Source: an uncultured Syntrophomonadaceae bacterium (lineage in GTDB: Bacteria > Bacillota > Dethiobacteria > DTU022). Taken from it: DNA of 64,000 bases. The position numbers and the translations under genes were made by a program. Location: contig CAZDKY010000021.1 in the NCBI GenBank assembly GCA_964506505.1, positions 4,010 through 68,009 of the forward strand, written 5' to 3'. Below are positions 2,203 through 34,186 of this stretch, one piece after another; the first letter of the stretch is position 1; every line of letters starts with the position of its first letter. The notes under the pieces were generated by a model. That model saw only the letters and a program-made list of their open reading frames with translations, had not been told where the DNA came from and did no database searches.

Positions 2203-2988
2203 TTATTTAGTTTCGCTTTTGGCCTGCTCAATTTTCTTCGAATGTGAACGATTTACCCACAATCCGAAAGCTACCGCGATAATAACAAGCACGCGGAAGG
2301 GTTTAAAGAGAGCACTCCAAATACGGGTTTGTAGTGATACCTGCGGATCGACCGGCAAGCCGTACTTTTCCGGTTTATCGGCCAGGACATAGAGCATGGC
2401 CGTTCCATCTACCTCATCCAGGCCGTACATGGTAGCATTGGTTTTACCGGCCGCTTTGAGTTCTTCCACTCTACTCTGGGCCTGATCGATCAATTCACGG
2501 TAATCCCCAAACTGGATTGAACCTGTAGGACAGGCATTGGCACAGGCCGGCTCCAGGCCGGCATTGAGCCGGTCATAACAGAAAGTACACTTCTGCGCCT
2601 TATTGGTCAGCCGATCAAAACCGATCACGTTAAACGGACAGGCCGCCACGCAGTAGTTACAACCGATACACTTTACCGTGTCAATATTAACCGTCCCGAA
2701 TTCAGTGCGGTACAATGCTCCGGTGGGGCAGGCCTGCATGCAGGCTGCATCAGTGCAATGCATACAGCCCTGCTTGGACATGAGAAAACCTACTTTACCA
2801 TCTTCTTCCTCATGTTCCCTGTAGACCACCCTCATCCAGGTCTGGGCCGAAAAACGGGGCGGGTTTTCATAACTTCCTTCAAAGGTTGTCGCTTCTGCAG
2901 GCAGCTGGTTCCACTGCTTGCAAGCTACCTGGCAGGCACGGCAACCGATACACTTGGAGGCATCAATTAAACAGATTAGCTGAGCCAT
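2203..2988 (-). CDS. fdhB: Formate dehydrogenase Fe-S (beta) subunit, FdnH/HybA-like, with C-terminal membrane anchor
   Basis: CIGCRACQVACKQWN, four 4Fe-4S motifs, C-terminal hydrophobic helix. Confidence 0.9.
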   Translation of the reverse strand: MAQLICLIDASKCIGCRACQVACKQWNQLPAEATTFEGSYENPPRFSAQTWMRVVYREHEEEDGKVGFLMSKQGCMHCTDAACMQACPTGALYRTEFGTVNIDTVKCIGCNYCVAACPFNVIGFDRLTNKAQKCTFCYDRLNAGLEPACANACPTGSIQFGDYRELIDQAQSRVEELKAAGKTNATMYGLDEVDGTAMLYVLADKPEKYGLPVDPQVSLQTRIWSALFKPFRVLVIIAVAFGLWVNRSHSKKIEQAKSETK

Positions 2989-5900
2989 TTATCCTGCCCT
3001 CCTTATATTGCACAGGAATGCTTTTGATTCGGGGATAGCCGTATTGGCATCACCAACCGATGCCGTCAGGTCGTTGGCTACGGCACCGGTACTCATTCCC
3101 TTGAAACCCCAGTGCCAGGGCAATGCGACATAGTGTTTTTTCTCACCGTTGATGATCAGCGGTTTAAGACGCTTGGTAACACAAGCTTTTGCCTCTATAC
3201 TTTCCTGATTGCCATCCTTGAAGAGGCGCTTGCTTTCGATGGCCACGACGTCGCCATTGTTTATACCCAGTTCTGAAGCCAGTTCCTCGCTGATCTCGAT
3301 GAAAAGTTCCGGCATCAGCTCGTTCAACCAGGGGATATTACGGGTAACGATACCCGACTGGTAATGTTCAACAACCCGACAGGTTGTAATGATGTAGGGG
3401 TATCTTTCCCTCTCTTCATCGGTTTCCACGGTGTGATCTTCGTAGAAACGCTGGCTAACCGGGTTATAAGTAGCATTGGGATAGAACAGGTTGGGAACCA
3501 GGCTCTCCGCCGGCTCGTAGTGAGTAGGCATGGGCCCGTCTTTCAAGGCACTGTGTGAATAAAGCCTGCCCACACCTTCCGGCAGCATGATAAAGGGATT
3601 CTCCGTAGACTGTTCAAGAGTCCAGCTACCGGGAATATCGGGAATGTCGTTGCCAACCCACTTCTGCTGGATTTCATCCCACCATATAACGGGGGCATCA
3701 GGATTCCATGGTTTTCCTTCCAGGTTGGCAGAACAACGATTGTAAACAATGCGCCGGTTCAGGGGCCAGGCAAAAGACCAACCCAGGTTAGTGCCAATAC
3801 CGTCTTTTTCTCGATTCCGGTTCTTAGTAGCCGGTTGATCATAGTTGTTATAGTACCCGCTGTATAACCAGTTTCCGCAGGCCGTCGATCCGTCATCAGC
3901 CAGGCCTACAAAGTTGGTAACCAGTGAATCGTCAACCACCCGGTAACCGTTGATATCTTTACAAACCTTGACAATATCCACTTCACCGTCAGGACCGTCA
4001 TAATCCCAGAACATTTTTGTGATCTGTTCTGGAACAACGCCACCCTCTGCTTCATAGAGGGACTGCAGTCTCTTAAAAAGTTCATTAACAATCCACAGGT
4101 CTGATTTTGCTTCGCCCGGCGGATCCTGGCACTTCCAGGTCCATTGGATCCAGCGGCCGCTGTTGGCCTTGCTGCCTTCCCTTTCATAACCGGCCGCGGC
4201 TGGGAGGATAAAGACCTCGGTGTCAATTTCAGCCGGATCCATGCCGGGACCCTGCCAGAAAGAAGCAGTTTCGTTTTCAAAGAGATCTACTGCAACGAGC
4301 CACTTGAGGTTCTTCTGGTAGTTACGCTTGTTAGCGGCACTGGGACCGGATACGGCCGGGTTGTCAGCCCAGCAGATCATCCCTTCCACTTTTTTTTCTC
4401 CCATATCTTTATACAGGGCAATGTGAGAGTGATCACGCCCGTCCAGCTTCGGCATCCACTGATAACCGAACTCATTATCTGAAGTAGCGTTATCGCCATA
4501 GAAAGCCTTCAGGAGGCTGACAAAATACTTCGGCTTGTTACTCCACCACCCGGAGGCCGGGGTTTCTTTTACCAGGTAATCATCAAGAGTAGGATGAGTC
4601 GCCTGCTGGGGAGTAGACATGTAACCGGGAACAATGTGATAGAGTATACTCATATCTGTTGAACCCTGCACATTGGACTGCCCGCGCTGGGCATTCACTC
4701 CACCACCGGCAATTCCGATATTCCCCAGGAGCAGCTGGACAATGGCACAGGAACGGACATTCTGTGAACCGTGCGTGAACTGGGTGATACCCATGGCATA
4801 AAGCAGGTTGCCTGCTTTACCGGCTTCACCTGTGCTGCTGTAAAGCTCATAAGAAGCTTCCAGCGCTTCGGGATCGGCACCTGTTATCTTGCTCACATTG
4901 TCGATGGTGTACTTAGCATAATGCTTTTTCATTAACTGCAGAACACAGTTGGGATCCTGCAAGGTGGGATCCTTTAGCGGCTTGCCCTCTTCATCCTGCT
5001 GGTACTGCCATGTTTCGGTATTGTATTTCTTCGCACTGCGAGCAGGATCGTCTTCGTCTCCGGAAAAAAGTCCTGTTGCCTCATCAAATGAAAACTCTTC
5101 GTTAACAAGGTAAGATGCATTGGTGTAATTTTCTACATACTCCTTGTGATAACGTTCGTTGCTGAGGATATAGTTGATCATTCCGCCCAGGTAAGCAATA
5201 TTGGTCCCGGGGCGAATGGAAACGTGCAGATCAGCAACCGCTGCCGTTCTGGATATGCGGGGGTCGATTACAATTAACTTCGCTCCCCTGGTCTCCCGGG
5301 CCTTTTGGATCCATTTCATAGAAATAGGATGGTTCTCAGCTGTGTTCCCACCTATATTGATAAAAACATCGGTATGTTTATAATCAATCCAGTGGTTGGT
5401 CATGCAACCTCTCCCGAACGTGGCGCCGAGACCGGCGACCGTGCTCGAGTGTCAGAGGCGAGCACAGTGATCAATATTAATCACACCCATGGCCCGGGCC
5501 ATCTTGTGGAAGAGGTAATTTTCCTCGTTGGTACAGAAAGCACTGCCCAGCCAGGAAATGGCCTCGGTCCGGTTGACGGTAACCTGCCTGCCGTCTACAT
5601 TGACCGATTCAACATAAGTTTGATCACGCGTGTCTTTAATTTTTCTGGCGATCGTATCCAGAGCCCAGTCCCAGTCTTTTACTTCATAGCTGCTGCTACC
5701 CGGAGCCCTGTATAGCACGTGAGTCAAACGGTTCGGGTTAGGCTTCGGTTTTCCTTTCTCATCGTAAATATAAGAAATGTTGTAATGCGAGCTCCCTTTA
5801 CTGCAAAGGGTACCCTCATTAATGGGGTGGTCCGGATCTCCTTCAGCATTGACAATTACGCCGTCCCGGACATGACAAACCACACCACAGCCAACTCCGC

Positions 5901-6054
5901 AAAAAGTGCAAATTGTTGTATACTCCTTGGTATACTTAATGCGCAGCGGGTCAATGGTTGACGCAGAAGCCTTATTCAGGCCAACACTGGCCAGCGTTGC
6001 CGCAGCGGCAGTTGCGCCAGTCAATTTTAAAAAACTGCGTCGTGTTAATTGCAT
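2989..6054 (-). CDS. fdhA: Selenocysteine-containing, Tat-exported formate dehydrogenase alpha subunit (FdnG-type), about 1021 aa
   Basis: ORFs 5452..6054 and 2989..5403 are in frame across TGA 5452-5454, reading [28 protein letters not shown] (canonical Fdh Sec site). Tat motif TRRSFLK; CTFCGVGC cluster motif. Confidence 0.95.
5420..5451 (-). promoter_or_regulatory. Bacterial SECIS element of fdhA
   Basis: Hairpin CGCCG-GTCT-CGGCG downstream of the UGA, loop G at +20. Confidence 0.8.
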
Positions 6055-6068
6055 AAGAATTCCACCTC

Positions 6069-6968
6069 CTAGTCGTGTCTGTCTACTATTTCGCTCTGGT
6101 TAACCCACTCCAGGCCGGAGCCGGGAGTGAAACCTTCCCGCCTGGCCAGTAAATCATAAGGCAGAGTGGCAAGGTTGTGGATGGTTAAGATTTCTGCTCC
6201 ATCCATGTTTAATTTTCTCCCATCAAAGATCTTGTAATACTGGCAGCATTGGCGACAATAGTAAACCCTGCATGTTTCCATCCCTTCAACACTAAAATAA
6301 CCGAGTTCCTCTCGCTCTTCATTTCCGCAGTACGGGCATTTGACGCGGCTATACACCCAGCGGGTGCCACAGAGCCAGCATTCGAACTGTTTTGCGCCAT
6401 CACTGCTGCGAAGCATACCAAAATGAGGCTTTTCACCGCATAACGGGCAATTCCCTCCTTCCCAGATGTCAGTCCGCAAGACCTCACTTACCGGCTGTAG
6501 GTACTGCCGGTAAAAGGAAGATACTATTATCGAAAAAAGAAACGTGGCCATGTCCTGCTCCAGGACGTTTTCTTTGACCAGATCGTCTCTGAACTCCATG
6601 AACTCGTTTCTTTCCATTTTTTCTGGTTTTTCAGCCAGGAACCGGTCACTTGCTTCTTCTAAAACCTTCACAGTAGTTTTTAAAGTTGGATTCGTTTTGT
6701 TCATGGCTATACTAACTTTCTTTAGCATTCCGATGACAGCGCTGGTATCCAGCGGGGGATTGCAGTTAAGCGACTGGCCCTTCTGCAGGGTTTCGTATAC
6801 TTTCATTTCATCAAGCGGCGCTGCAGCTTCAATCGGGTTTTCCAGAATATACTCATTAAGAGCAGAATATGCCTTTTCGACAAAGGTAACTGCTTCGCTA
6901 AAATTGTCATAGAGGCGGATGCAGCGGTCAATTTCTTCCCTGTAATTATTGTGCGGCAGGATAGTCAA
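6069..6968 (-). CDS. fdhE: Formate dehydrogenase accessory protein FdhE
   Basis: CPLCG, CWLCGTRW, CPYCG, CRQC motifs; lies directly upstream of fdhA. Confidence 0.9.
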   Translation of the reverse strand: MTILPHNNYREEIDRCIRLYDNFSEAVTFVEKAYSALNEYILENPIEAAAPLDEMKVYETLQKGQSLNCNPPLDTSAVIGMLKKVSIAMNKTNPTLKTTVKVLEEASDRFLAEKPEKMERNEFMEFRDDLVKENVLEQDMATFLFSIIVSSFYRQYLQPVSEVLRTDIWEGGNCPLCGEKPHFGMLRSSDGAKQFECWLCGTRWVYSRVKCPYCGNEEREELGYFSVEGMETCRVYYCRQCCQYYKIFDGRKLNMDGAEILTIHNLATLPYDLLARREGFTPGSGLEWVNQSEIVDRHD

Positions 6969-8226: not shown

Positions 8227-9414
8227 TTATAATCCCATGCTGCCAAAAATCATCCCCGATATTGTAGCCATAACAACAACCAGCGCAACGAAAACTATCG
8301 TTTTTTGGGTGCCGAGAACTGAACGTATTACAAGCATATTTGGCAAACTGAGGGCCGGTCCGGCGAGCAGCAGGGCGAGCGCCGGCCCCTTACCCATGCC
8401 AGCTCCAAGCAATCCCTGTAGAATGGGAATTTCTGTTAAGGTGGCGAAGTACATAAAAGCACCGACTACTGAGGCAACAAGGTTGGCCTGCAAACTGTTA
8501 CCACCAACCAGCGCTTCTATATAGCGAACCGGAATTAACCCGGCATCGCTTCCCGGACGCCCCATCAGCAAACCGGCTACCAGGACACCGGCAAAAAGCA
8601 GGGGCAGAATCTGCTTGGCAAAATCCCAGGTGGTATTAACCCAGTCCTTTCGTTCTTCCTGTTTAAACCACCGGGCGAGTATAAAGAAAAGGGCAACCAG
8701 TAAAGCTATTACTACCGGCCATTTTACCGCGTATATCATATTATAGAAACCAATTGGTTCAGCCGGTTTACCCCAGGTGGCAAAAATCAATATCAACACG
8801 AGGGTCAGGAAAAAGAGGATATTCTGCACCGGGCTGCGTGTTTCAGTCATATCTTCATCCAAACCAGCCATCTGTGAGGCAAGCCTTTTTTGATCATCTT
8901 CCCGATATAGAAAAGCCATAATCAGCCCGATCACCACTGCAAATACTATTGCACCAACTGCCCTGGCCATGCCAAGTTCCCAGCCCAGGACCCGTGCTGT
9001 TAAAACAATCGCCAGGATATTAATGGCTGGCCCTGAGTAAAGAAAGGCCACGGCCGGGCCAATACCTGCTCCACGACGGTAAATACCACTGAACAGGGGC
9101 AATACCGTGCAGGAGCAAACAGCCAGGATTATGCCGGAAACTGAGGCTACAGAATAGGCAACAATCCTGCTGGCACCGCTCCCAAAATACTTGATCACTG
9201 CACCCTGGGAAACAAAATTGGCAATAGCCCCGGCTATAAAGAATGCCGGGATCAGGCAGAATAAAACATGCTCCCGGGCATATTCCTGCAGCAGGTGAAA
9301 AGCTTCAATAATAGCCGTGCTTATCTGCGGACTGCCAAAAGGCACAAAATAGGCAGCGAGAAAAACGGCTACGATAACAATAAATTTTTGGTATTCTTTC
9401 ATGGACAGGTTCAA
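8227..9414 (-). CDS. DUF318/ArsP-family permease
   Basis: AVCSCTVLPLF, FLYSGPAIN, YFATLTEIP, LLAGPALSLP motifs; multiple TM segments. Confidence 0.85.
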   Translation of the reverse strand: MNLSMKEYQKFIVIVAVFLAAYFVPFGSPQISTAIIEAFHLLQEYAREHVLFCLIPAFFIAGAIANFVSQGAVIKYFGSGASRIVAYSVASVSGIILAVCSCTVLPLFSGIYRRGAGIGPAVAFLYSGPAINILAIVLTARVLGWELGMARAVGAIVFAVVIGLIMAFLYREDDQKRLASQMAGLDEDMTETRSPVQNILFFLTLVLILIFATWGKPAEPIGFYNMIYAVKWPVVIALLVALFFILARWFKQEERKDWVNTTWDFAKQILPLLFAGVLVAGLLMGRPGSDAGLIPVRYIEALVGGNSLQANLVASVVGAFMYFATLTEIPILQGLLGAGMGKGPALALLLAGPALSLPNMLVIRSVLGTQKTIVFVALVVVMATISGMIFGSMGL

Positions 9415-25563: not shown

Positions 25564-26559
25564 CTATTCGGTAACAACGGGAAGTCCTTCTTTTTCAACC
25601 CAACCATCACGGATACCAAACTGCACTGAATAAGCATCAAAACCGAGCAGGCGAAGGACACCTACTGTCTGACCGGCGGTCTGGCCGGAATAGCAACCCA
25701 CGGCGATAGGCCGGGTGCTGGGCAGATCTTCGAGCAGATTACTCACTTCGCTCCAGGGGCTGTGCACAGAACCGGCAATATGGCCTGCAGCATAGTCATC
25801 GGCGGAGCGGATATCGAGCACATAGAAAGAATTGGGATTTGCTTCCAAAGCATCATTAAGCTCCGGACCGGGAATAATATTGTTATCCGAAGCTACAGCG
25901 GCGAAGAATTCTTTAGCCGCTTCCCAGATGATCTCTTCTTTTTCAGCTGCCGGTGAAGATACACTGTCCAGGTCGCCTGCAGCGTTCATACCCGTTTCAT
26001 CAAGGGGCAATCCGGCCGCTTCGACCCAGCCCAGGCTGATCCCCGACTGCAACGATTTAACATTGTCAAATCCGGCCATTCTCAGAACTGCAACGGTCTG
26101 ACCGGCGGTCTGACCTGAATAGCAAGTCACCACTACCGGCTTATTCTGGGGAATCCGATCCATTATATTCCCTACTTCAGCCCAGGCGCTGTGAACTGCA
26201 CCGGGGATATGTCCTGCCTCAAAATCTTCAGCACTGCGGATATCCAGAATAAAAATGGAATTTGGATTGCTATCCAGCATCTCTTTAACATCTGCCGGAG
26301 GCATTATGTTGTTATCTGTAGCTGTTTTAGCAAAATAATCTTTTGCCGCTTCCAGCAAAACTGCTCCGGCATCGAGAGCCTCTTCAGGCTCATCAGTTTC
26401 CTCCTCGGGTTCTTCCACCGCCTCTTCATCTGCCTGTTCTTCATCTACTACCTCTTCTTCCGGCGTTTCGACAGCTTCTTCGGTTTCACAGCCAACCAGG
26501 CCGAAAACCATAACCCCCATGAATAATACGACAAGCAACAAACTAAAAAGCTTCTTCAT
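25564..26559 (-). CDS. Lipoprotein with two rhodanese (sulfurtransferase) domains
   Basis: Lipobox LVGC, acidic linker, two LDIRS...GHI.G repeats with CYSGQTA active-site loops. Confidence 0.88.
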   Translation of the reverse strand: MKKLFSLLLVVLFMGVMVFGLVGCETEEAVETPEEEVVDEEQADEEAVEEPEEETDEPEEALDAGAVLLEAAKDYFAKTATDNNIMPPADVKEMLDSNPNSIFILDIRSAEDFEAGHIPGAVHSAWAEVGNIMDRIPQNKPVVVTCYSGQTAGQTVAVLRMAGFDNVKSLQSGISLGWVEAAGLPLDETGMNAAGDLDSVSSPAAEKEEIIWEAAKEFFAAVASDNNIIPGPELNDALEANPNSFYVLDIRSADDYAAGHIAGSVHSPWSEVSNLLEDLPSTRPIAVGCYSGQTAGQTVGVLRLLGFDAYSVQFGIRDGWVEKEGLPVVTE

Positions 26560-26822: not shown

Positions 26823-27038
26823 TCACCTGGCCATCAGGGTCCCACATTTGGGGCACTTAATCTGATTGCATGGTGTTCCTGCCTGATGAGCAATGCGGTG
26901 ACCACAGTTCGGGCATACACATTCACCACCCACGCCAAACCCGGCTCCGCCCATGCGGGCTTTTCCACCACCCTGACCGAGGCCACGGCCTGTTCCCGGC
27001 CCTTCTCCCCTCGGTCCGCTACCATCTCCTCTGGGCAT
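26823..27038 (-). CDS. Small Gly-rich, Cys-rich protein (DUF5320-like N-terminus plus CxCPxC...CPKC metal-binding tail)
   Basis: MPRGDGSGPRGEGPGTGRGLG...CVCPNCG...PCNQIKCPKCG; RBS GGAGG. Confidence 0.7.
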   Translation of the reverse strand: MPRGDGSGPRGEGPGTGRGLGQGGGKARMGGAGFGVGGECVCPNCGHRIAHQAGTPCNQIKCPKCGTLMAR

Positions 27039-27116
27039 AATAATCACCTCCTCTTCGGGATAAAAAGGCCGACCTCTTGTAAGGCCGGCCCCTTTTTATT
27101 AACTTGCCAAGTATTA

Positions 27117-29300
27117 TTATTCAGTAACAAGAGGAAGTCCATCATTTCCAATCCATCCGTTACTTATGCCAGACTGCACGGAATAAGCGTCAAAACCGAG
27201 CAAACGAAGAACGCCTATTGTCTGACCGGCAGTCTGACCGGAATAGCAACCCACAACAATGGGCTTGGCACCAGGTAAATCTTCCAGCAGGTTGCCCATT
27301 TCAGCCCAGGCGCTGTGAATTGCACCGGCAATATGACCCTCAGCATAATCTTCGGCCGAACGGATGTCGATTACATAGAAGGCATTTGGATTGGATTCCA
27401 GTGCTCCATGTAACTCCGGACCGGGGATTATATTATTACCTGAAGCCACAGCGGCAAAGAATTCTTTGGCCGCTTCCCAGATAATTTCTTCTTTTCCATC
27501 AGCCGGTGATGAAACACTGTCCAGGTCGGCGGCAGCGTTCATGCCCGTTTCATCCAAAGGCAGTCCGGCCGATTCTAACCAGCCCATGCTGATTCCCGAC
27601 TGAATGGATTTGACATTTTCAAACCCGGCCATCCTCAGAACGGCAACGGTCTGAGCAGCGGTCTGACCAGAATAACAGCCAACCACTACCGGTTTGGTTC
27701 GGGGAATGCGGTCCAAGATGTTACCCACTTCAGCCCAGGCACTGTGAACGGCACCGGGAATATGCCCCGCTTCAAAATCATCTGCACTGCGGATATCCAG
27801 CACAAAAATGGAATTCGGGTTACTATCCAGCATCGCTTTAACATCTGCCGGAGGCATAATATTATTATCTGTAGCTACTTCGACAAAATAATTTTTTGCA
27901 GCTTCCAGCAAAACTTCTCCGGCGTCGATAGCCTCTCCCGACTCTTTGTCTTCTTGATCCGACTCTTCACCCGATGTTTCTTCCTGAACTATTTCTCTCA
28001 ACACATCCACCTGTGGTATCGATCTGACAACCAGATTCAGATTGGCCTTGCTGTCATTTTCTACTAAATCGCTTTCCCCCAGGAAGAGGTATTCATTACC
28101 GTGACAGGCTTCGCAGCTTTCGTTCTGCATGGTCAGCCGCTGGACATTATGCATTGACGAATATTTCCAGTTAGGAATTTCGTCATAATTTGGCAGTTCA
28201 CCATCAATTGCAGCCAACGTATCCGGAGCTGTTGGAACATGACGCAGGGAAATATATTCATAGGGACGTTCTTCTGTCCGATCGGGGTTTAAACCGATTT
28301 TAAACATAATCCTTTCAGTACCTGTGGTACTGGCCAGCGCTCCATCTTCAGTCATCATTACGTGGCAATCATAGCAATTGTTATTAGCAGAACCATGGCA
28401 GACCTGGCAGTTCATTGTATCTTCAGAATGGGCTTTGTGAGCCAGAACATCGCTATCTTCATAAACATTGCCATGGCAATCAGAGCAACTGGGCAAATCA
28501 GCTTCAAAACGGTTATTTTCCGGCTCCCCGCTGCCGTGGAAGTTGCTCTGGTCATGACAGTCGGTGCAGGTCATTCCCGCATCGAAATGAACATCCGATG
28601 TGTAGCCAACCAAACCCATAAATTCACCGGCTACACGGGCACCGTGGCATCCGTAGCATGTCTCTTCAACCGGCGGGTTCTCAGCAAACATGTGCTCAGA
28701 ATGAAGTCCCCCGGTATAAACCTGCGGCCTGCTGACATGGCATGAGCCACATCCCGAATGGCAGTGAGAACAATTGTCATCAAAGGCATACTGATATGGG
28801 CTTCCTTCCTCCATGGTAGAACCATCGTAGGTAAAGGCTTCCAGCCCTTCCCTCATGCCCTGGACTGTATAATGAATAGACCCGGCAAAAGTAGCACCCT
28901 GTTCTTCGTGGCAGGTCGCGCAAAGAGCTCCCCCTCCCTCCGCGGAAGGTTGAGTAATCAACCCCTGGTGTGCTTCCTCCTTGTTGGTAACATTCTGTCC
29001 GCTGTGGCAGGTAATGCAGCCTAATTCGCCGTGGGCGGTTTCAACAAAATCTGGATTAACATAGAACAGTTCCTGACCCCCCAACTGGGGTCCGGCGACA
29101 CCTCAACCGGCACCAGCAGATGCTTCAGGAATTTCGTACATCGATTCCATTGTTCCAGCATCCAGGTGACAAGCCATGCAACCATCACTGGGTGTGGCTC
29201 CAAGAGCCGGAGCTGTATTAACATACCAGATTACTACTGCAAAAACTAAAACCACTGATGAAACCAAAAATATTAATGATTCCTTTCTACGTTTTGCCAA
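27117..29300 (-). CDS. Putative selenocysteine-containing 11-heme cytochrome c fused to two rhodanese domains (about 727 aa)
   Basis: ORFs 29103..29300 and 27117..29084 are in frame across TGA 29103-29105 (ASAGAG-U-GVAGPQLGG). 11 CxxCH motifs, N-terminal signal/anchor, two CYSGQTA rhodanese loops. Confidence 0.8.
29070..29102 (-). promoter_or_regulatory. Putative SECIS of the multiheme-rhodanese gene
   Basis: GGACCCC-AGTT-GGGGGGTC hairpin, loop G at +18 from the UGA. Confidence 0.65.
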
Positions 29301-29523
29301 AACCCCACCTCCTAATGCTGTTTAAACGATACAACCATATTTTACATATGCCAGATTAAATGATAGCTTATAACTTTCAATGTGATTCTTATTCATAACC
29401 GCTTTTTATTATATCATAATCGTGCCGGAGAGGCTATAGAAATGGTTATTTAAATTACCATCAAAATTACCATCAAAATTAAAAATTTCAAATATAATTT
29501 GATATCTAATCCGTTTGATTCCC

Positions 29524-31683
29524 TCAGGTTGTGAAACGCCTCCAAACGGCAATCGCCGTGCCGGCAACCAGCAGAACCGCACCAATGGCAAGGATCGAAA
29601 TGAGTGGCTTTATTTTGACCTCGGCAATAAATATTTCTTCCTCCTCTACAACACTCTCGCCACCCTCAAAGGTAAGCTGCACCATACCACTATCAGCATC
29701 GATCTCTTCCATGATAATTCTTTCCCCCCCGGGCAGGATAGCAGGATTATTGATTCGCTCCGCCGGATTCTGAACGATCGTAGGCATGTACTCGCGGAAA
29801 CCATCGCCACCATCCACCTCCAGCAGTGCACCCACCTCAATTACTTCGGCCTCGGAATGGGATGCAAAAGAAAAATCGCGGAACACTATCAGGTAATCTC
29901 CGACCCGATATTGTTCATCTTTAGCCAGGATAAACGTTTCTCCGCCTCCGACAATCTGCAGCTCCATGGGACTGATGTATAAATCACTTAAAATGTTGTG
30001 ATGAATTGCCGGTGAACGCATCACTTGCTCTCCAGCAGTATAAATATTGGGCCTGGCAATGATCACCTGTGTTCCGTCTTCGACCTGGACCACCGGGTAG
30101 TTGTTTTTCCCCTCGACAGTGAGCCCGAGATAGGTAAATTCCAGGCCCAATGCCTCTACCGTCTCTCCCTTTTTGAGATTAAGAAGCTGCGACTCAGTGT
30201 AAAAAGTGGAAGCAAGGACCCCGATAAAAAGCAGAGCAAGTCCGACATGGGCCAGGTAAGCCCCGCTAAATTTCAAGCCCGCCTTCACAGTCCTTACCAG
30301 CCAAACGACATTTACGGCAAGGGCCAGGGTCATTATCCCAATGAAAAGTAAATCAAAAAAAGAATTAACGCCGGCCAGGTAAGCAACAATCAATGCTACA
30401 GGGAAAATAATGAGGATCTTTTTTAACCTGGTAAAGACAACTTTAAACACCGCGTTTTTCCAGCCCAGCAGCGGGCATACAATCAAAACAATAAAAAGAA
30501 GTAAAAACAAAGGGCTATTGGTCTGAAAATAAAACTGCTCATCTACACTGGCCGGGGAACCGAACAACCCGGTCAGAATAGGAGAAAGTGTGCCCAGCAG
30601 GACCAGCAGAGATGAAAGGCAAAGCACAACCATTGTTATTACGAAACTGCCCTGGCGGGAGAAAAATCCTTCCGAAGAGCTCTGAACCGGCATAAATTTA
30701 AACCTGGCTATATAAAGTACCAGACCCGGAACCAGATAGATGAGAACAAAGATTCCCAGTACATAGGTCAGGGCTGTTTCGGCAAAGGCGTGCACGGAAT
30801 AGTCGGCCATAACCCCACCGCGAGTGAGGAAAGTAGCGGTAATTATAAGAACAAAAGTGATAATGGCCAGTAAAAGATTGCTTTTTACAAAGCGGCCTTT
30901 TTGCTTCTGGCCAACAAGCCCATGCACAAGAGCCGTAGCCGTCAGCCAGGGAACCAGGGATGCGTTTTCCACAGGGTCCCAGCCCCAGTAACCGCCCCAG
31001 CCCAAAACCCGGTAGGCCCATGCCGCTCCGATAAATATTCCCGCTCCCAGGAAAAGCCATCCAGCTCCGGCCCATGGAAGAGCGCGCAGGAAACCCACTG
31101 ACCAGTCTTTTTTCCAGAGAGCAGCAACTGCATAGGCAAAAGGAATAGTAAGCAGGGCATATCCGATAAAGACAATCGGAGGATGGATAACCATCCACGG
31201 ATCCATCAACAAAGGATTCATTCCCATACCGTCAGCCGGAACCCGGCCGAGGTCATAAAAAGGAGTTTCCAGGAAAAGAAAGATCATCAGGAATAACTGC
31301 CCCAGGAGAATAAAAGGCATCACCGCTGGCAACAGCTCTTTTTCTTTTTTCATCAGCAAATAACCGGCCAGGGCAGCCATCAAAGCCCATAGCAGAAAAG
31401 TGCCTTCCTGGCCGGCCCAGAAAGAGGAGACCAGGTACTTTAAAGGCAATTCGAGGTTGGTATGTGCAAAAACATAGTAATACTGGAACTGGTGAGTCAG
31501 CAGGACATACATCAGGTAAACGGAAGCGATTATAATACCCGCCGTATGCAAATGGTAAAAGACATAGGCATAATCAATACCAGCCGATTTGCCGGATTGC
31601 GATGAAATTGCTTTTTTCAAAAATAGTATTGCCGCCGCAAGTGCGGATCCAAAAGCAATCAGAATACCAATATTACCGATCAT
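29524..31683 (-). CDS. ccmF: Cytochrome c heme lyase CcmF
   Basis: FWAGQEG, MVIHPP, WAYRVLGWGGYWGWDPVENASLVPW, SVHAF. Confidence 0.95.
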   Translation of the reverse strand: MIGNIGILIAFGSALAAAILFLKKAISSQSGKSAGIDYAYVFYHLHTAGIIIASVYLMYVLLTHQFQYYYVFAHTNLELPLKYLVSSFWAGQEGTFLLWALMAALAGYLLMKKEKELLPAVMPFILLGQLFLMIFLFLETPFYDLGRVPADGMGMNPLLMDPWMVIHPPIVFIGYALLTIPFAYAVAALWKKDWSVGFLRALPWAGAGWLFLGAGIFIGAAWAYRVLGWGGYWGWDPVENASLVPWLTATALVHGLVGQKQKGRFVKSNLLLAIITFVLIITATFLTRGGVMADYSVHAFAETALTYVLGIFVLIYLVPGLVLYIARFKFMPVQSSSEGFFSRQGSFVITMVVLCLSSLLVLLGTLSPILTGLFGSPASVDEQFYFQTNSPLFLLLFIVLIVCPLLGWKNAVFKVVFTRLKKILIIFPVALIVAYLAGVNSFFDLLFIGIMTLALAVNVVWLVRTVKAGLKFSGAYLAHVGLALLFIGVLASTFYTESQLLNLKKGETVEALGLEFTYLGLTVEGKNNYPVVQVEDGTQVIIARPNIYTAGEQVMRSPAIHHNILSDLYISPMELQIVGGGETFILAKDEQYRVGDYLIVFRDFSFASHSEAEVIEVGALLEVDGGDGFREYMPTIVQNPAERINNPAILPGGERIIMEEIDADSGMVQLTFEGGESVVEEEEIFIAEVKIKPLISILAIGAVLLVAGTAIAVWRRFTT

Positions 31684-32066
31684 CAGCGATTATCCTCTGC
31701 TTCTTCATATTTTGAGGGACATTTGACAAGAATTTTTTCGGCCTGGAACACTCCTTCGCAGTATTCTCCAACCACGACAACATTTTCCGAATGTTCCATG
31801 TTATTCGGTTTTACCCCACTGTAGGTAACAGAAGCCCTGGTTCCCTCTTCGTCAACCAGGTAAAAATGGAGTTCACCGGCAGTACTATCATATTGAATGG
31901 GCTCTTCCTTGACAAGGTAACCGAGCACCTGGACCTGCTGCAATGTTTCCGCCGCTTCGGCAAATGAAACATAAGGATTGAGAGCAGAGCGAAATGAAAA
32001 GAAAGCAAAACTGGCAAAGACGATAATCACCGCCAAGCCGATTATCCATTTTGTTTTATTCTTCAT
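31683..32066 (-). CDS. ccmE: Heme chaperone CcmE, CxxxY variant
   Basis: N-terminal TM, ILVKCPSKY motif; start set at ATG 32066. Confidence 0.9.
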   Translation of the reverse strand: MKNKTKWIIGLAVIIVFASFAFFSFRSALNPYVSFAEAAETLQQVQVLGYLVKEEPIQYDSTAGELHFYLVDEEGTRASVTYSGVKPNNMEHSENVVVVGEYCEGVFQAEKILVKCPSKYEEAEDNR

Positions 32067-32172
32067 CTTTTTTCTCCAACTTTCTGATCCGCAGATCAAT
32101 CCTGAGCAGATAAAAGAAAATTCCACCCCAGGCAATCAGGGCAACAATGAGAACAATATATAGATCAGACAT
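32056..32172 (-). CDS. ccmD: CcmD heme exporter small subunit (38 aa)
   Basis: Manual translation MSDLYIVLIVALIAWGGIFFYLLRIDLRIRKLEKKDEE, located between ccmC and ccmE. Confidence 0.8.
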   Translation of the reverse strand: MSDLYIVLIVALIAWGGIFFYLLRIDLRIRKLEKKDEE

Positions 32173-32830
32173 TTTCTTCACCTTCCATTCCAGTTGTCAC
32201 CGAAGAAATACGTGAAACAATATTTGCTATCCAAGCGTAAAGGCCGGTAAATCCCACCATGGAAGCCATAAAAACCTGGAACATTTTCGCATCCATCTGG
32301 AATCCTGATTCGACACTAATAATCGGATCTGGATGGAGGGTGGCATAGACCCTGGGAATGATGAAAACCAGAAAAGGGACGGAAATAAAAGCAATTATAC
32401 TGAAAACTGAGGCCATCCGGGCCCGTCTTGTTTCATCTTCCACTGCCGATCGCAGCACAAAATAGGCGCAGTAGATCAAAAGAAGGACAAAGATAGAGCT
32501 CTCTCGGGGATCCCAGTTCCAGAACATGCCCCAGGTGTAACGGGCAAAAATTGACCCGGTTAACGTAGCCAGAACAGTAAATATTAATCCGATTTCAGCA
32601 TTGAGAGCCGCCTTTCGATCATCGATCATCATTCCTTTTTTTAAATAACGAATGCTGTAAATCATGGAGATGAGATAGGCCAGGACACTGACCCAGGCCA
32701 AAGGAACATGAAAAAATATTATCCGGGCCAGATCACCCAGGCCAAGGGCGGGCGGAGCATAAATAAAGGCGGCAATAGTGACCAGCGCCATCCAGAGGGC
32801 AAGAATAATTTTCAGGACCAGTAAAACCAT
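32165..32830 (-). CDS. ccmC: Heme exporter CcmC
   Basis: IIFFHVPLAW, WGMFWNWDPRE, TLHP. Confidence 0.92.
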   Translation of the reverse strand: MVLLVLKIILALWMALVTIAAFIYAPPALGLGDLARIIFFHVPLAWVSVLAYLISMIYSIRYLKKGMMIDDRKAALNAEIGLIFTVLATLTGSIFARYTWGMFWNWDPRESSIFVLLLIYCAYFVLRSAVEDETRRARMASVFSIIAFISVPFLVFIIPRVYATLHPDPIISVESGFQMDAKMFQVFMASMVGFTGLYAWIANIVSRISSVTTGMEGEENV

Positions 32831-32913
32831 TTTTATACTCCTTTATATTCCTTCACAAGAACCGCCGCAGATATTTTCCGCTTTATATACTTTGCCACAC
32901 CTTGCCGTTTTGG

Positions 32914-33600
32914 TCAATCCTCCCAGACAAAAGAAAATAGTAAAAGTGAAGCGGTGACGATAATCACCAGGTAAGAAAAAAGAAAGGTCAGTTCGGACAA
33001 AACACTATCTGCATTTCCACCTGCCAGAGCAATGCTCGTCCCCCTAATGGCCGTAAGCAAAACGGGCAGCAGAACAGGGAAAGCGATCACGGGAAGCAGA
33101 GAATTTTTCGCGCCGGCCCGGGAAACCATTGCTGCCAGGATAGTTGTCGCTCCGGCCAGGCAAACCGAGCCGAGAACAAGAAAGGCAACAACCAGCAAAT
33201 AGTTACTTCCGGGAGGAAGATTCATCAAAAAAATGTAAAGTGGGAAAACAACCACCAGCAGGCCAAGCAGGAGAAGTACATTATAGAGAAGCTTACCGGT
33301 GAAAATAATCTCCGGGGAAGCTGAAAGCCGCAGAGCGGCAGCCGTCCCCTTTTCTTCTTCCTTGATAAAGCTGCGAGCCAGGGCCGACATGGAAGAAAAA
33401 AAGATGATTATCCATAAGAATGAAGCGTGCAATCCCGCATCCAGGGCAAAAATGCCGGTGGAGAAGCTGACCATCACCAAAGTAGTCAGGGCAAATAGAC
33501 CCATAGAAGTAATGGCATAGCGGGTGCGCAGTTCGTCTACCAAATCTTTTTTAACCAGGGCCCATACTCCCCGGAGCGAGTTGTAAAATATCCTGCCCAA
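32914..33600 (-). CDS. ccmB: Heme exporter CcmB
   Basis: KKDLVDELR, RSFIKEEEKGT, LLPVIAFPVLLP. Confidence 0.9.
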   Translation of the reverse strand: MGRIFYNSLRGVWALVKKDLVDELRTRYAITSMGLFALTTLVMVSFSTGIFALDAGLHASFLWIIIFFSSMSALARSFIKEEEKGTAAALRLSASPEIIFTGKLLYNVLLLLGLLVVVFPLYIFLMNLPPGSNYLLVVAFLVLGSVCLAGATTILAAMVSRAGAKNSLLPVIAFPVLLPVLLTAIRGTSIALAGGNADSVLSELTFLFSYLVIIVTASLLLFSFVWED

Positions 33601-34186
33601 AGCGTTCTACCTCCGATGGTTCATTGGTAGCCATGAGAACGATCCCTTTGCTGACCTGATCCCCTATAATGAGGTTAACCATATCCTTACCTGCCCGATC
33701 GAGATTGGTAAAAGGTTCATCAAGAAAGAGAAAAACAGGTTCGTGTAGGAGAGCAAAAGCCAACCTGAAGCGCTGTTTCATGCCTGAAGAAAAGGTAGCC
33801 AGGGGACGGTTCATTTCCTCCCTCAGCTGGACCTTTGCCAACAGTCTCTGCAGAAAGTCATTGCCCTTATCAAGCCCCCGCAAAGCGGAAAAAAAGACAA
33901 GATTTTCCAATGGCGAAAGCTGCCCATAAAATTGCAGATCAGGGGAAACCAGTCCCATACTGCTGCGCATGCAGGACGGATCGATAATATCTTCCCCCAT
34001 ATAACAGGCGATTGTTCCGGCAGTCGGTTTTTCCAGGCCGCAGAGAAGCCGCAGCAATGTCGATTTTCCGGAACCGTTTGGCCCGGTTACCACATAACTT
34101 TTTCCCTTTTCCAACTGCCAGGAAAGATTTTTAAACACATTATTTCGCTGATAACTTTTCGCCAAACCTTTTAGCTCTATGCGCAT
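33551..34186 (-). CDS. ccmA: Heme exporter ATP-binding CcmA
   Basis: GPNGSGKST, FSSGMKQR, LDEPFTNLD; adjacent to ccmB. Confidence 0.88.
   Translation of the reverse strand: MRIELKGLAKSYQRNNVFKNLSWQLEKGKSYVVTGPNGSGKSTLLRLLCGLEKPTAGTIACYMGEDIIDPSCMRSSMGLVSPDLQFYGQLSPLENLVFFSALRGLDKGNDFLQRLLAKVQLREEMNRPLATFSSGMKQRFRLAFALLHEPVFLFLDEPFTNLDRAGKDMVNLIIGDQVSKGIVLMATNEPSEVERFGQDILQLAPGSMGPG

Follow-up and report, generated by a model that had tools for sequence, protein, structure and literature searches.

A predicted eleven-heme cytochrome c selenoprotein with fused rhodanese domains, encoded across an in-frame UGA in an uncultured Syntrophomonadaceae bacterium

The gene described here lies in a 64,000-nt stretch of DNA (the window; contig CAZDKY010000021.1, positions 4,010 to 68,009) from an uncultured Syntrophomonadaceae bacterium. 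An earlier note on this DNA had proposed that it encodes a hidden selenoprotein, in which a multiheme cytochrome c and two rhodanese domains are joined across a TGA codon. All coordinates below are those of the window, and the finding lies wholly on its minus strand. The gene, its parts and its immediate flanks are as follows.

27117..29300, minus strand: the whole predicted selenoprotein gene, 727 codons plus stop, with a TTG start at 29300, UGA as codon 66 and a TAA stop at 27119-27117.
29306..29313, minus strand: Shine-Dalgarno-like AGGAGGTG, 5 nt ahead of the TTG start, read from the sequence.
29214..29288, minus strand: N-terminal hydrophobic helix, residues 5-29, a signal anchor or signal peptide, helical in the AlphaFold2 (AF2) model.
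29166..29180, minus strand: heme motif 1, CMACH, residues 41-45, 5′ of the UGA and invariant in 71 of 71 aligned members.
29103..29105, minus strand: UGA, the predicted selenocysteine (Sec) 66, in the motif G-A-G-U-G-V-A-G-P-Q-L (wider context S-A-G-A-G-U-G-V-A-G).
29075..29093, minus strand: hairpin resembling a selenocysteine insertion sequence (SECIS), with GUU in its apical loop, columns 13-31 of a 76-sequence alignment, supported by covariation.
27990..29042, minus strand: OTR-like multiheme core, residues 87-437, with heme motifs 2-11, from the AF2 domain model and from structure and profile matches.
27852..27989, minus strand: acidic linker, residues 438-483, with a model confidence (pLDDT) below 50 at residues 444-454, resembling the linker of a lipoprotein paralogue.
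27588..27851, minus strand: rhodanese domain 1, residues 484-571, active-site Cys542 at 27675-27677 in a CYSGQTA loop.
27147..27419, minus strand: rhodanese domain 2, residues 628-718, active-site Cys685 at 27246-27248 in a CYSGQTA loop.
27061..27090, both strands: G+C-rich inverted repeat of 8 pairs with an 8-nt loop and T/A runs at its flanks, terminator-like and directly 3′ of the stop, read from the sequence; the consensus terminator scan did not list it.

Under translation table 11 this gene appears as two open reading frames (ORFs) in one frame, 29300-29103 (65 aa, TTG start) and 29084-27117 (655 aa), the second restarting at a TTG (29084) six codons 3′ of the TGA. When the TGA is read as U, a single uninterrupted product of 727 residues is obtained. 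It has eleven CxxCH motifs, one before Sec66 and ten between residues 95 and 400, and it matches the rhodanese family PF00581 at 91.5 bits (cut-off 22.2) in two stretches, each with its catalytic Cys. The earlier note had described an anchor ORF with one CxxCH that ends at the TGA, the same frame resuming six codons on with ten further CxxCH motifs and two rhodanese domains, and a G-A-G-U-G-V context followed by a CCCC-AGTT-GGGG hairpin with its loop G at +18. All of these are present on the minus strand. Its statement that the downstream ORF has no export signal also held on inspection of the sequence, which showed neither a signal peptide on the downstream part nor a AGGAGGTG-like ribosome-binding site before the restart at 29084.

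The assembly that holds the window (1.82 Mb, 70 contigs, 94% complete) was searched for the selenocysteine machinery. SelB (375 bits) and SelA (589 bits) were found in adjacent genes and SelD at 381 bits, all above curated cut-offs; the gene for SelD itself has one in-frame TGA (G000:C29:139-1068, L016). A tRNA-Sec with anticodon TCA scored 71.8 bits against a gathering score of 47. Conservation of the TGA was followed at two distances. A six-frame search of 40 related genomes returned the cytochrome in five besides the window's own, and all five have the TGA within the same motif, at 97, 90, 69, 56 and 54% identity. A scan of one genome per species (185,579 species) gave 418 pattern matches, of which 380 stretches were confirmed by tblastn, and the best 80 of these were analysed. 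In 79 of the 80 loci an in-frame TGA occupies the aligned position, within the motif G-x-G-U-G and at identities down to 33-38%; a script placed 75 of them, and four (L063, L097, L105 and L106, with G-E-G-U-G-G) were added by reading the translations. These 79 loci span at least four phyla (Bacillota, Chloroflexota, Desulfobacterota and Actinomycetota), and none of the 80 has TAA or TAG at the site. The remaining locus, L085, has neither Sec nor Cys there.

Forms with an ordinary amino acid at the site were found among database proteins. In 48 longer forms, the site column holds Cys in 15 (P0003, with G-G-C-A-V-A-P, and 14 representative clusters), a gap in 14, Tyr in two (P0011, P0083), His in one (P0053), Trp in two and various residues in the rest. 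The earlier note had suggested a tblastn search for homologues with a conserved TGA or Cys; with the TGA in 79 of 80 loci, no TAA or TAG, and the Cys forms, both kinds are now at hand. Trp at or beside the Sec site was seen, partly by eye, in P0025, P0033, P0059, P0066, P0140 and P0009. Trp at the site is probably a TGA decoded as Trp by a gene caller under another genetic code, and if so, some public protein sets contain silently mistranslated selenoproteins.

If the TGA were a true stop, the locus would hold two separate genes or one broken gene. The two ORFs obtained under table 11 and the public gene calls, which end at the TGA, are what this predicts. However, the TGA keeps to one column across nearly all loci, is never exchanged for TAA or TAG and has conserved flanks; the downstream part lacks its own signal peptide and ribosome-binding site; Cys forms exist; and the complete Sec machinery is encoded. 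The comparative sequence data already contradict a true stop, and we give it almost no chance of being correct.

A bacterial SECIS is a stem-loop shortly past the UGA with a G in its apical loop. Such a stem-loop is found here, as the hairpin GACCCC-AGUUGG-GGGGUC (alternatively CCCC-AGUU(G)-GGGG) starts 11 nt past the UGA and has its loop G at 18 nt. Folded alone, the 76-nt stretch around the UGA was no more stable than its shuffles (z 0.43), and the support for the hairpin comes from comparison across sequences, not from folding energy. Starting at the UGA, 48 nt can be aligned across 76 sequences with no gap, and each of these sequences folds to a hairpin starting 11-14 nt past the UGA. In the helix of columns 13-20 with 24-31, 78.5% of the cells are paired compared to 63.0% in shuffles, and both sides have changed in 79 cells compared to 32.2. 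The covariation score was 0.330, against 0.108 ± 0.013 in shuffles (0 of 500 reached 0.330) and at most 0.136 in slid-partner controls, the latter being the fairer comparison, as the covariation sits in coding sequence of related genes and shuffles overstate it. At pair 16-28, 41 sequences have G-C and 30 have C-G, and the arms as a whole are swapped between Desulfobacterota (GGAGCC...GGCUCC) and Chloroflexota (GGCUCC...GGAGCC), with different amino acids as the cost. RNAalifold kept four pairs in the 76-sequence alignment at a weak energy of -0.88 kcal/mol. One common structure fits poorly because in the Gudongella-type loci (L044-L053, L055 and L056) the hairpin lies 3 nt further downstream, as CACAGCU-GGA-AGCUGUG with the loop GGA instead of GUU. 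Rfam gave no relevant match at E ≤10. From these comparisons, the UGA is read as being decoded by SelB and tRNA-Sec, aided by the hairpin 11 nt downstream.

Because the Sec machinery is encoded, the UGA is conserved, Cys homologues exist and the SECIS-like hairpin covaries, we conclude that TGA codon 66 is a selenocysteine codon and the gene a selenoprotein gene, with a probability of roughly 95%. The hidden selenoprotein of the earlier note is therefore supported from several sides. Besides the coding-sequence setting of the covariation, two points count against this conclusion. Some members (L085 and several clusters) have neither Sec nor Cys at the site, so the residue is dispensable for the fold. 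The second concerns expression. Contigs from RNA libraries (three runs of one study, mostly at least 90% alike) match stretches of the gene and run across the UGA at 28983-29306, a weak hint of expression from assembled contigs that derive from relatives and may hold DNA; coming from one study, they are no proof of transcription, and nothing follows from the stretches that they leave bare.

The family is not confined to the relatives of this organism. HMMER against 1.84 billion cluster representatives (50% identity) returned 596 clusters at E ≤1e-3, 265 at 1e-10 and 108 at 1e-30, in addition to the 380 tblastn-confirmed stretches among the species-representative genomes. Nearly all members are stand-alone proteins of ~430-530 residues with eleven CxxCH motifs, and a few have 10, 12 or 13. 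Judged by these sequences, this is a large cross-phylum family, mainly of Chloroflexota, Bacillota, Desulfobacterota and Actinomycetota, with Sec and less often Cys at the site. The nearest named relatives are Bacillota metagenome-assembled genomes, in agreement with the Gram-positive anaerobic host that the earlier note had assumed. Cultured carriers are Gudongella sp. SC589, Thermanaerothrix solaris 4228-RoL, Dethiosulfatarculus sandiegensis SPR and Desulforhopalus sp. 52FAK.

In public databases the gene is mostly cut at the UGA, with loss of the export signal, heme 1 and Sec. Among the 150 best representatives, 93 have the heme-2 motif and 48 of these start right after the Sec site, as expected of truncated gene calls; in the 90%-identity collection, 509 proteins matched at E ≤1e-20, and the best 120 are mostly of 360-390 residues. 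NCBI names them "hypothetical protein", and JGI either "hypothetical protein" or "thiosulfate/3-mercaptopyruvate sulfurtransferase". The JGI sulfurtransferase name was also seen on truncated members (P0198, P0199, P0208, P0210 and others) despite the absence of a rhodanese domain. The name probably derives from fused forms, and one genome paper has probably been misled by it already. In hundreds of species from at least four phyla, the gene is thus deprived of its signal peptide, heme 1 and putative catalytic residue, and metabolic reconstructions see a cytoplasmic "hypothetical protein" or "sulfurtransferase".

The eleven hemes require attachment, and System I cytochrome c maturation genes (29524..34186, minus strand) lie directly upstream of the cytochrome gene.

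33551-34186, minus strand: ccmA, above the Pfam cut-off.
32914-33600, minus strand: ccmB, above the Pfam cut-off.
32165-32830, minus strand: ccmC, above the Pfam cut-off.
32059-32181, minus strand: CcmD-like ORF of 41 aa between ccmC and ccmE, 18.4 bits against a Pfam cut-off of 23.5 (E 0.0023).
31683-32135, minus strand: ccmE, above the Pfam cut-off.
29524-31683, minus strand: ccmF, above the Pfam cut-off.

The upstream ccmABCDEF cluster of the earlier note is therefore in place, its ccmD represented by the sub-cut-off ORF. No other stop-to-stop frame with at least three CxxCH was found in the 1.82-Mb genome, and for this reason the adjacent operon seems to serve this cytochrome alone, as far as the assembly shows. 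The organism would thus offer the simplest form of the system, with one multiheme cytochrome, one adjoining Ccm operon and the putative sulfur carrier fused to the enzyme.

All eleven heme motifs are invariant in the 71 aligned members, as is the Sec column, the latter by choice of the set. Outside the motifs, nine His are invariant (H90, H111, H143, H203, H238, H255, H291, H354 and H384) and H288 is conserved at 93%; R222, R353 and W378 are also invariant. The same 71 members have no extra conserved Cys and no Lys column conserved at ≥80%. With eleven hemes and at most ten conserved distal His, at least one heme would not be bis-His ligated. In translations of many homologues, a lipobox Cys takes the place of the plain anchor of the window protein. 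Ccm-attached c-type hemes, together with lipoprotein homologues and partners, directly imply at the sequence level that the protein is exported or anchored at the outer face of the membrane, where Ccm would attach the hemes. The earlier note's picture of a surface-exposed polysulfide, sulfur or selenite enzyme is a reasonable conjecture.

We modelled the protein with AF2. The full-length model had a pLDDT of 81.5 and a pTM of 0.59, with the Sec loop below 50; the cytochrome domain alone, on a deeper alignment, reached a pLDDT of 90.5 and a pTM of 0.87, with the Sec loop again the weakest block (mean 63). Foldseek returned only rhodaneses for the full-length model, and for the cytochrome domain its best match was OTR 1sp3 (E 5.3e-3, TM 0.42). 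VIA-align placed OTR of Shewanella (1sp3_A) first, with Z 9.3 and an rmsd of 4.2 Å over 268 residues, covering protein residues 87-437 (model 58-408), followed by HAO (Z 4.8), MtrA of the Mtr complex (4.1), OcwA (3.8) and the C. ferrireducens undecaheme cytochrome (3.6). The family profile also had OTR 1sp3 as its best match among PDB sequences (E 5.4e-7). The segment that holds heme 1 and Sec (residues 30-86) lies outside the OTR match. These matches give the core an OTR-like fold, but the protein falls outside the OTR family: TIGR04315 (cut-off 375 bits) gave no match to it at E ≤0.01, and no NCBIfam model reached its cut-off on the cytochrome part. TIGR04315 found no member in the genome at E ≤0.001 either, a weak negative given that 14 control genomes also had none. 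OTR of Shewanella oneidensis has eight hemes compared to eleven here, and the window family adds the N-terminal heme and Sec extension and a conserved rhodanese partner.

The likeness to OTR raises the question of whether the protein is an OTR-type tetrathionate, nitrite or hydroxylamine reductase that works at an open heme, with Sec auxiliary and the rhodanese incidental. A lysine heme ligand marks OTR, and the window family has no such conserved column. OTR 1sp3 is the closest solved structure by fold and by PDB sequence, and Sec-containing members of the OTR family (TIGR04315), annotated in GenBank, figure in the available part of a 2026 review (PMC13188914). However, TIGR04315 does not match, Sec lies in the N-terminal extension beyond the OTR-aligned part, and the conserved rhodanese partner would be left unexplained; we consider an enzyme of this type very unlikely. 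The lower VIA-align matches bear on another alternative, a cell-surface electron conduit to Fe(III) or electrodes, like OcwA or OmhA, with Sec and rhodanese non-catalytic. OcwA, the C. ferrireducens undecaheme protein and MtrA show a weak structural likeness, and the Pfam MtrC/MtrF domain scored 28.8 bits against a cut-off of 30. Those Z values, however, lie within the background range of the tool, and neither an invariant Sec nor a conserved rhodanese partner would be expected of a plain conduit, which makes this alternative highly improbable.

The earlier note had compared the protein with ExtKL of Geobacter. ExtKL (GSU2937-2936 of Geobacter sulfurreducens), described only in 2026 as MccSep, is a Sec- and heme-containing reductase of polysulfide and selenite that S0 respiration requires (PMC13510729). 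The comparison stands for function and fails for descent, as MccSep appears to be a functional analogue and not a relative: its model NF040886 does not match at E ≤0.01, and the PDB profile search gave E 0.057 for 9wt8. The octaheme sulfite reductase MccA, or SirA (4rkm_A), had a VIA-align Z of 2.3 and was not among the PDB sequence matches at E ≤1. MccSep (9wt8/9wt9) and the window protein are both exported multiheme c-type cytochromes with one Sec and a UGA at which annotation splits the gene, and both families have a SECIS-like hairpin, Cys-type relatives and a rhodanese-family lipoprotein nearby (ExtH for MccSep). In contrast, MccSep has five hemes, with Sec near the C-terminus on an Ig-like domain (D-G-U-P), and the window protein has eleven, with Sec in an N-terminal G-x-G-U-G loop. 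A conserved Cys serves as a heme ligand in MccSep, but no extra Cys is conserved in the window family. MccSep is found mainly in Desulfobacterota and Nitrospirota.

The available part of the 2026 selenoproteome review names ExtKL (NF040886), GSU2204 (NF041027) and OTR (TIGR04315) as cytochrome-type families (PMC13188914), and none of these three models matches this protein. In the literature we found no description of an eleven-heme Sec cytochrome, although data S1/S2 of the MccSep paper and the supplementary lists of the review might mention one; apart from unrelated papers, the matches were MccSep/ExtKL and the review's entries for the OTR and GSU2204 families. The present family would then represent further multiheme cytochrome selenoenzymes, distinct from MccSep in fold and Sec placement.

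MccSep also prompts the alternative that the same selenoprotein reduces a chalcogen oxyanion such as selenite or tellurite, with the rhodanese as a carrier of selenotrisulfide or perselenide. MccSep also reduces selenite (PMC13510729), and the Geobacter ext cluster was first linked to selenite and tellurite reduction (PMC13510729 and the accessible part of PMC5877670). There is a similarity to the ExtN, ExtO and ExtM cytochromes in NCBIfam, but at 27-30 bits it is far under the cut-offs and at noise level for heme-rich proteins. Moreover, polysulfide is the better substrate for MccSep (PMC13510729), and the family is common in ordinary anoxic habitats, where selenite is scarce. An oxyanion substrate is quite unlikely by this account.

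The rhodanese partner is a more general feature of the family than the fusion. The fused 727-residue form was found in the window and in one genome of the same genus (G001, 97%). In a second genome of the genus (G002, 90%) and in G008 (69%), the cytochrome ends at ~430 residues and a separate tandem-rhodanese gene follows just downstream. The window itself has a further copy of this kind.

25564..26559, minus strand: paralogous tandem-rhodanese lipoprotein, 331 aa, with lipobox LVGC, an acidic linker and two CYSGQTA loops.

As this separate copy is retained and is 77% identical to residues 428-727 of the fused protein, the fusion seems to have come about when a recently duplicated copy was joined to the cytochrome in frame. 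Fusions of independent origin occur in Desulforhopalus-like sequences (P0005-P0007 and P0010) and in P0172. The earlier note had not recognised the single-chain architecture; eleven hemes and two rhodaneses do share one chain, but this is a local variant, and the general arrangement is a stand-alone cytochrome beside a rhodanese lipoprotein.

To examine the neighbourhoods, we clustered all ORFs within 5 kb at 76 loci (75 and the window). A same-strand rhodanese was present in 64 of 76, on the downstream side in 47 cases and on the upstream side in 18; most lie 10-150 nt from the cytochrome, and their lengths run from about 120 to 880 residues. With the window's paralogue as the query, tblastn found a rhodanese in 70 of the 80 loci, and several of the ten misses are contigs shorter than 4 kb. 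Where partners were aligned, all 15 of 15 keep the lipobox Cys and the two catalytic Cys. The neighbourhoods also repeatedly contain a divergent LysR regulator (29 loci), CcmF/CcmC- or CcsA-type proteins (16) and ResB (10). The Gudongella-type loci have the rhodanese gene on the upstream side of the cytochrome and ResB/CcsA (System II) instead of Ccm. Between the fused gene and the lipoprotein gene of the window, there is a small glycine-rich ORF of 74 aa (26823-27047, minus strand) with a DUF5320 match of 25.5 bits, just under the cut-off of 27.

In rhodanese chemistry, a Cys takes up sulfane sulfur as a persulfide. Sud of Wolinella succinogenes is an extracytoplasmic rhodanese-type carrier, which binds sulfane sulfur through a Cys and delivers it to the polysulfide reductase Psr. 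The rhodanese domains of the window protein are GlpE/PspE-like, of the single-domain type, with the active Cys kept. Psr is a molybdoenzyme with the NrfD-type anchor PsrC, whereas here the putative reductase would be a heme and Sec protein fused to its carrier; the genome search found no NrfD/PsrC, DsrA or PhsA over the cut-offs. We therefore propose, by analogy, that the system corresponds to Sud with Psr in Wolinella and to MccSep with ExtH in Geobacter, and that the protein is an extracytoplasmic reductase of rhodanese-delivered sulfane sulfur, from thiosulfate or polysulfide. We hold this prediction to be somewhat better than an even bet.

Based on the analogy with MccSep and on rhodanese chemistry, a cycle of three steps can be envisaged. 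Sulfane sulfur of thiosulfate (with release of sulfite), of polysulfide or of S0 would first be bound by the rhodanese Cys as a persulfide. This persulfide would then give its sulfur to the Sec66 selenolate, so that a Se-S intermediate forms beside a heme, and two electrons arriving through the heme chain would release sulfide and restore the selenol. In MccSep, Sec attacks the sulfur substrate beside a His/Cys heme (PMC13510729). A speculative electron donor is the Sec formate dehydrogenase encoded at 2203-6051, 21 kb from the cytochrome gene, which would be extracytoplasmic.

The only cultured genus near this organism is Dethiobacter. Although it has neither psr nor dsr, Dethiobacter alkaliphilus is able to reduce thiosulfate, sulfur and polysulfide, according to the parts available of two studies (PMC5609068, PMC10376724). 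Its DealDRAFT_1917 / OMD50_RS07060, a multiheme cytochrome beside a rhodanese gene, is reported in the same parts to be up-regulated with thiosulfate; eight hemes were counted, it is labelled "SirA-like octaheme" and earlier "thiosulfate sulfurtransferase", and the word selenocysteine occurs in neither paper (PMC10376724, PMC5609068). Its JGI label is that of the truncated family members, and from label and neighbour it appears to belong to the family.

The D. alkaliphilus data also bear on the opposite direction of catalysis, in which the protein would oxidise thiosulfate or sulfide as the dehydrogenases TsdA and SoxAX do (His/Cys hemes) and pass the electrons into the cell. His/Cys-ligated hemes catalyse thiosulfate oxidation, as cited in PMC13510729 in part of that source, and one heme here has no conserved distal His. 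Strain Z-1002 of D. alkaliphilus showed the putative orthologue under Fe(II)-oxidising conditions alone, but in strain AHT1 the protein was up-regulated during thiosulfate respiration (both from the available part of PMC10376724). The carriers that could be named are anaerobes, and no terminal oxidase or other acceptor chain was noticed, although no systematic search was made. An oxidative role is accordingly hard to favour, and we put it among the very improbable ones.

Several points weigh against a sulfane-sulfur reductase. The Sec loop, where the chemistry would take place, is the least confident part of both models, and the models carry no hemes. Candidate donors (NrfD, NiFe hydrogenase or another multiheme cytochrome) were not found in the 94% complete genome. 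OTR-like enzymes are promiscuous towards nitrite, hydroxylamine and tetrathionate, as cited in the part of PMC13510729 available to us. Finally, the placing of DealDRAFT_1917 in the family comes from its label and its neighbour, D. alkaliphilus being outside the 80 loci kept. Should the sulfane-sulfur reductase nevertheless hold, the family would provide a testable candidate for thiosulfate and sulfur reduction in Dethiobacter-like alkaliphiles and in Anaerolineae, both of which are without the canonical enzymes.

A further step from the sulfane-sulfur reductase concerns the ligand of the odd heme. Sec66 could itself be the distal ligand of one c-type heme, since there are eleven hemes and ten conserved distal His and no other conserved Cys or Lys, and since relatives without Sec have Cys and occasionally His or Tyr, all able to ligate iron. 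A persulfide-fed heme-Se centre would then be the missing thiosulfate or sulfur reductase of organisms without Psr, Phs or Dsr, namely Dethiobacter, Anaerolineae, Gudongella and some Desulfobacterota. To our knowledge, a His/selenolate-ligated heme has not been described in nature, and we regard this proposal as unlikely.

Elsewhere in the window, a second selenoprotein gene and its neighbours were identified.

2989-6051, minus strand: formate dehydrogenase-N-type alpha subunit FdhA, with U in H-C-A-R-L-U-H-S-S; table 11 splits the gene at 5400/5452 at the in-frame TGA.
2203-2985: FdhB-like.
6069-6965: FdhE-like.
868-2181: RnfC.

No cytochrome b subunit gene lies beside the FdhA gene. Elsewhere in the genome, two molybdoenzyme genes with one TGA each (G000:C3:110598-112058, L113, and G000:C41:11041-12570, L114) are probably further Sec formate dehydrogenases. 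A further ORF of the window (8227-9411, minus strand) has weak, sub-cut-off matches of 110-114 bits to the SO_0444 Cu/Zn efflux and SaoE transporter families; the SO_0444 family is counted among the selenoproteins in the available part of the 2026 review (PMC13188914).

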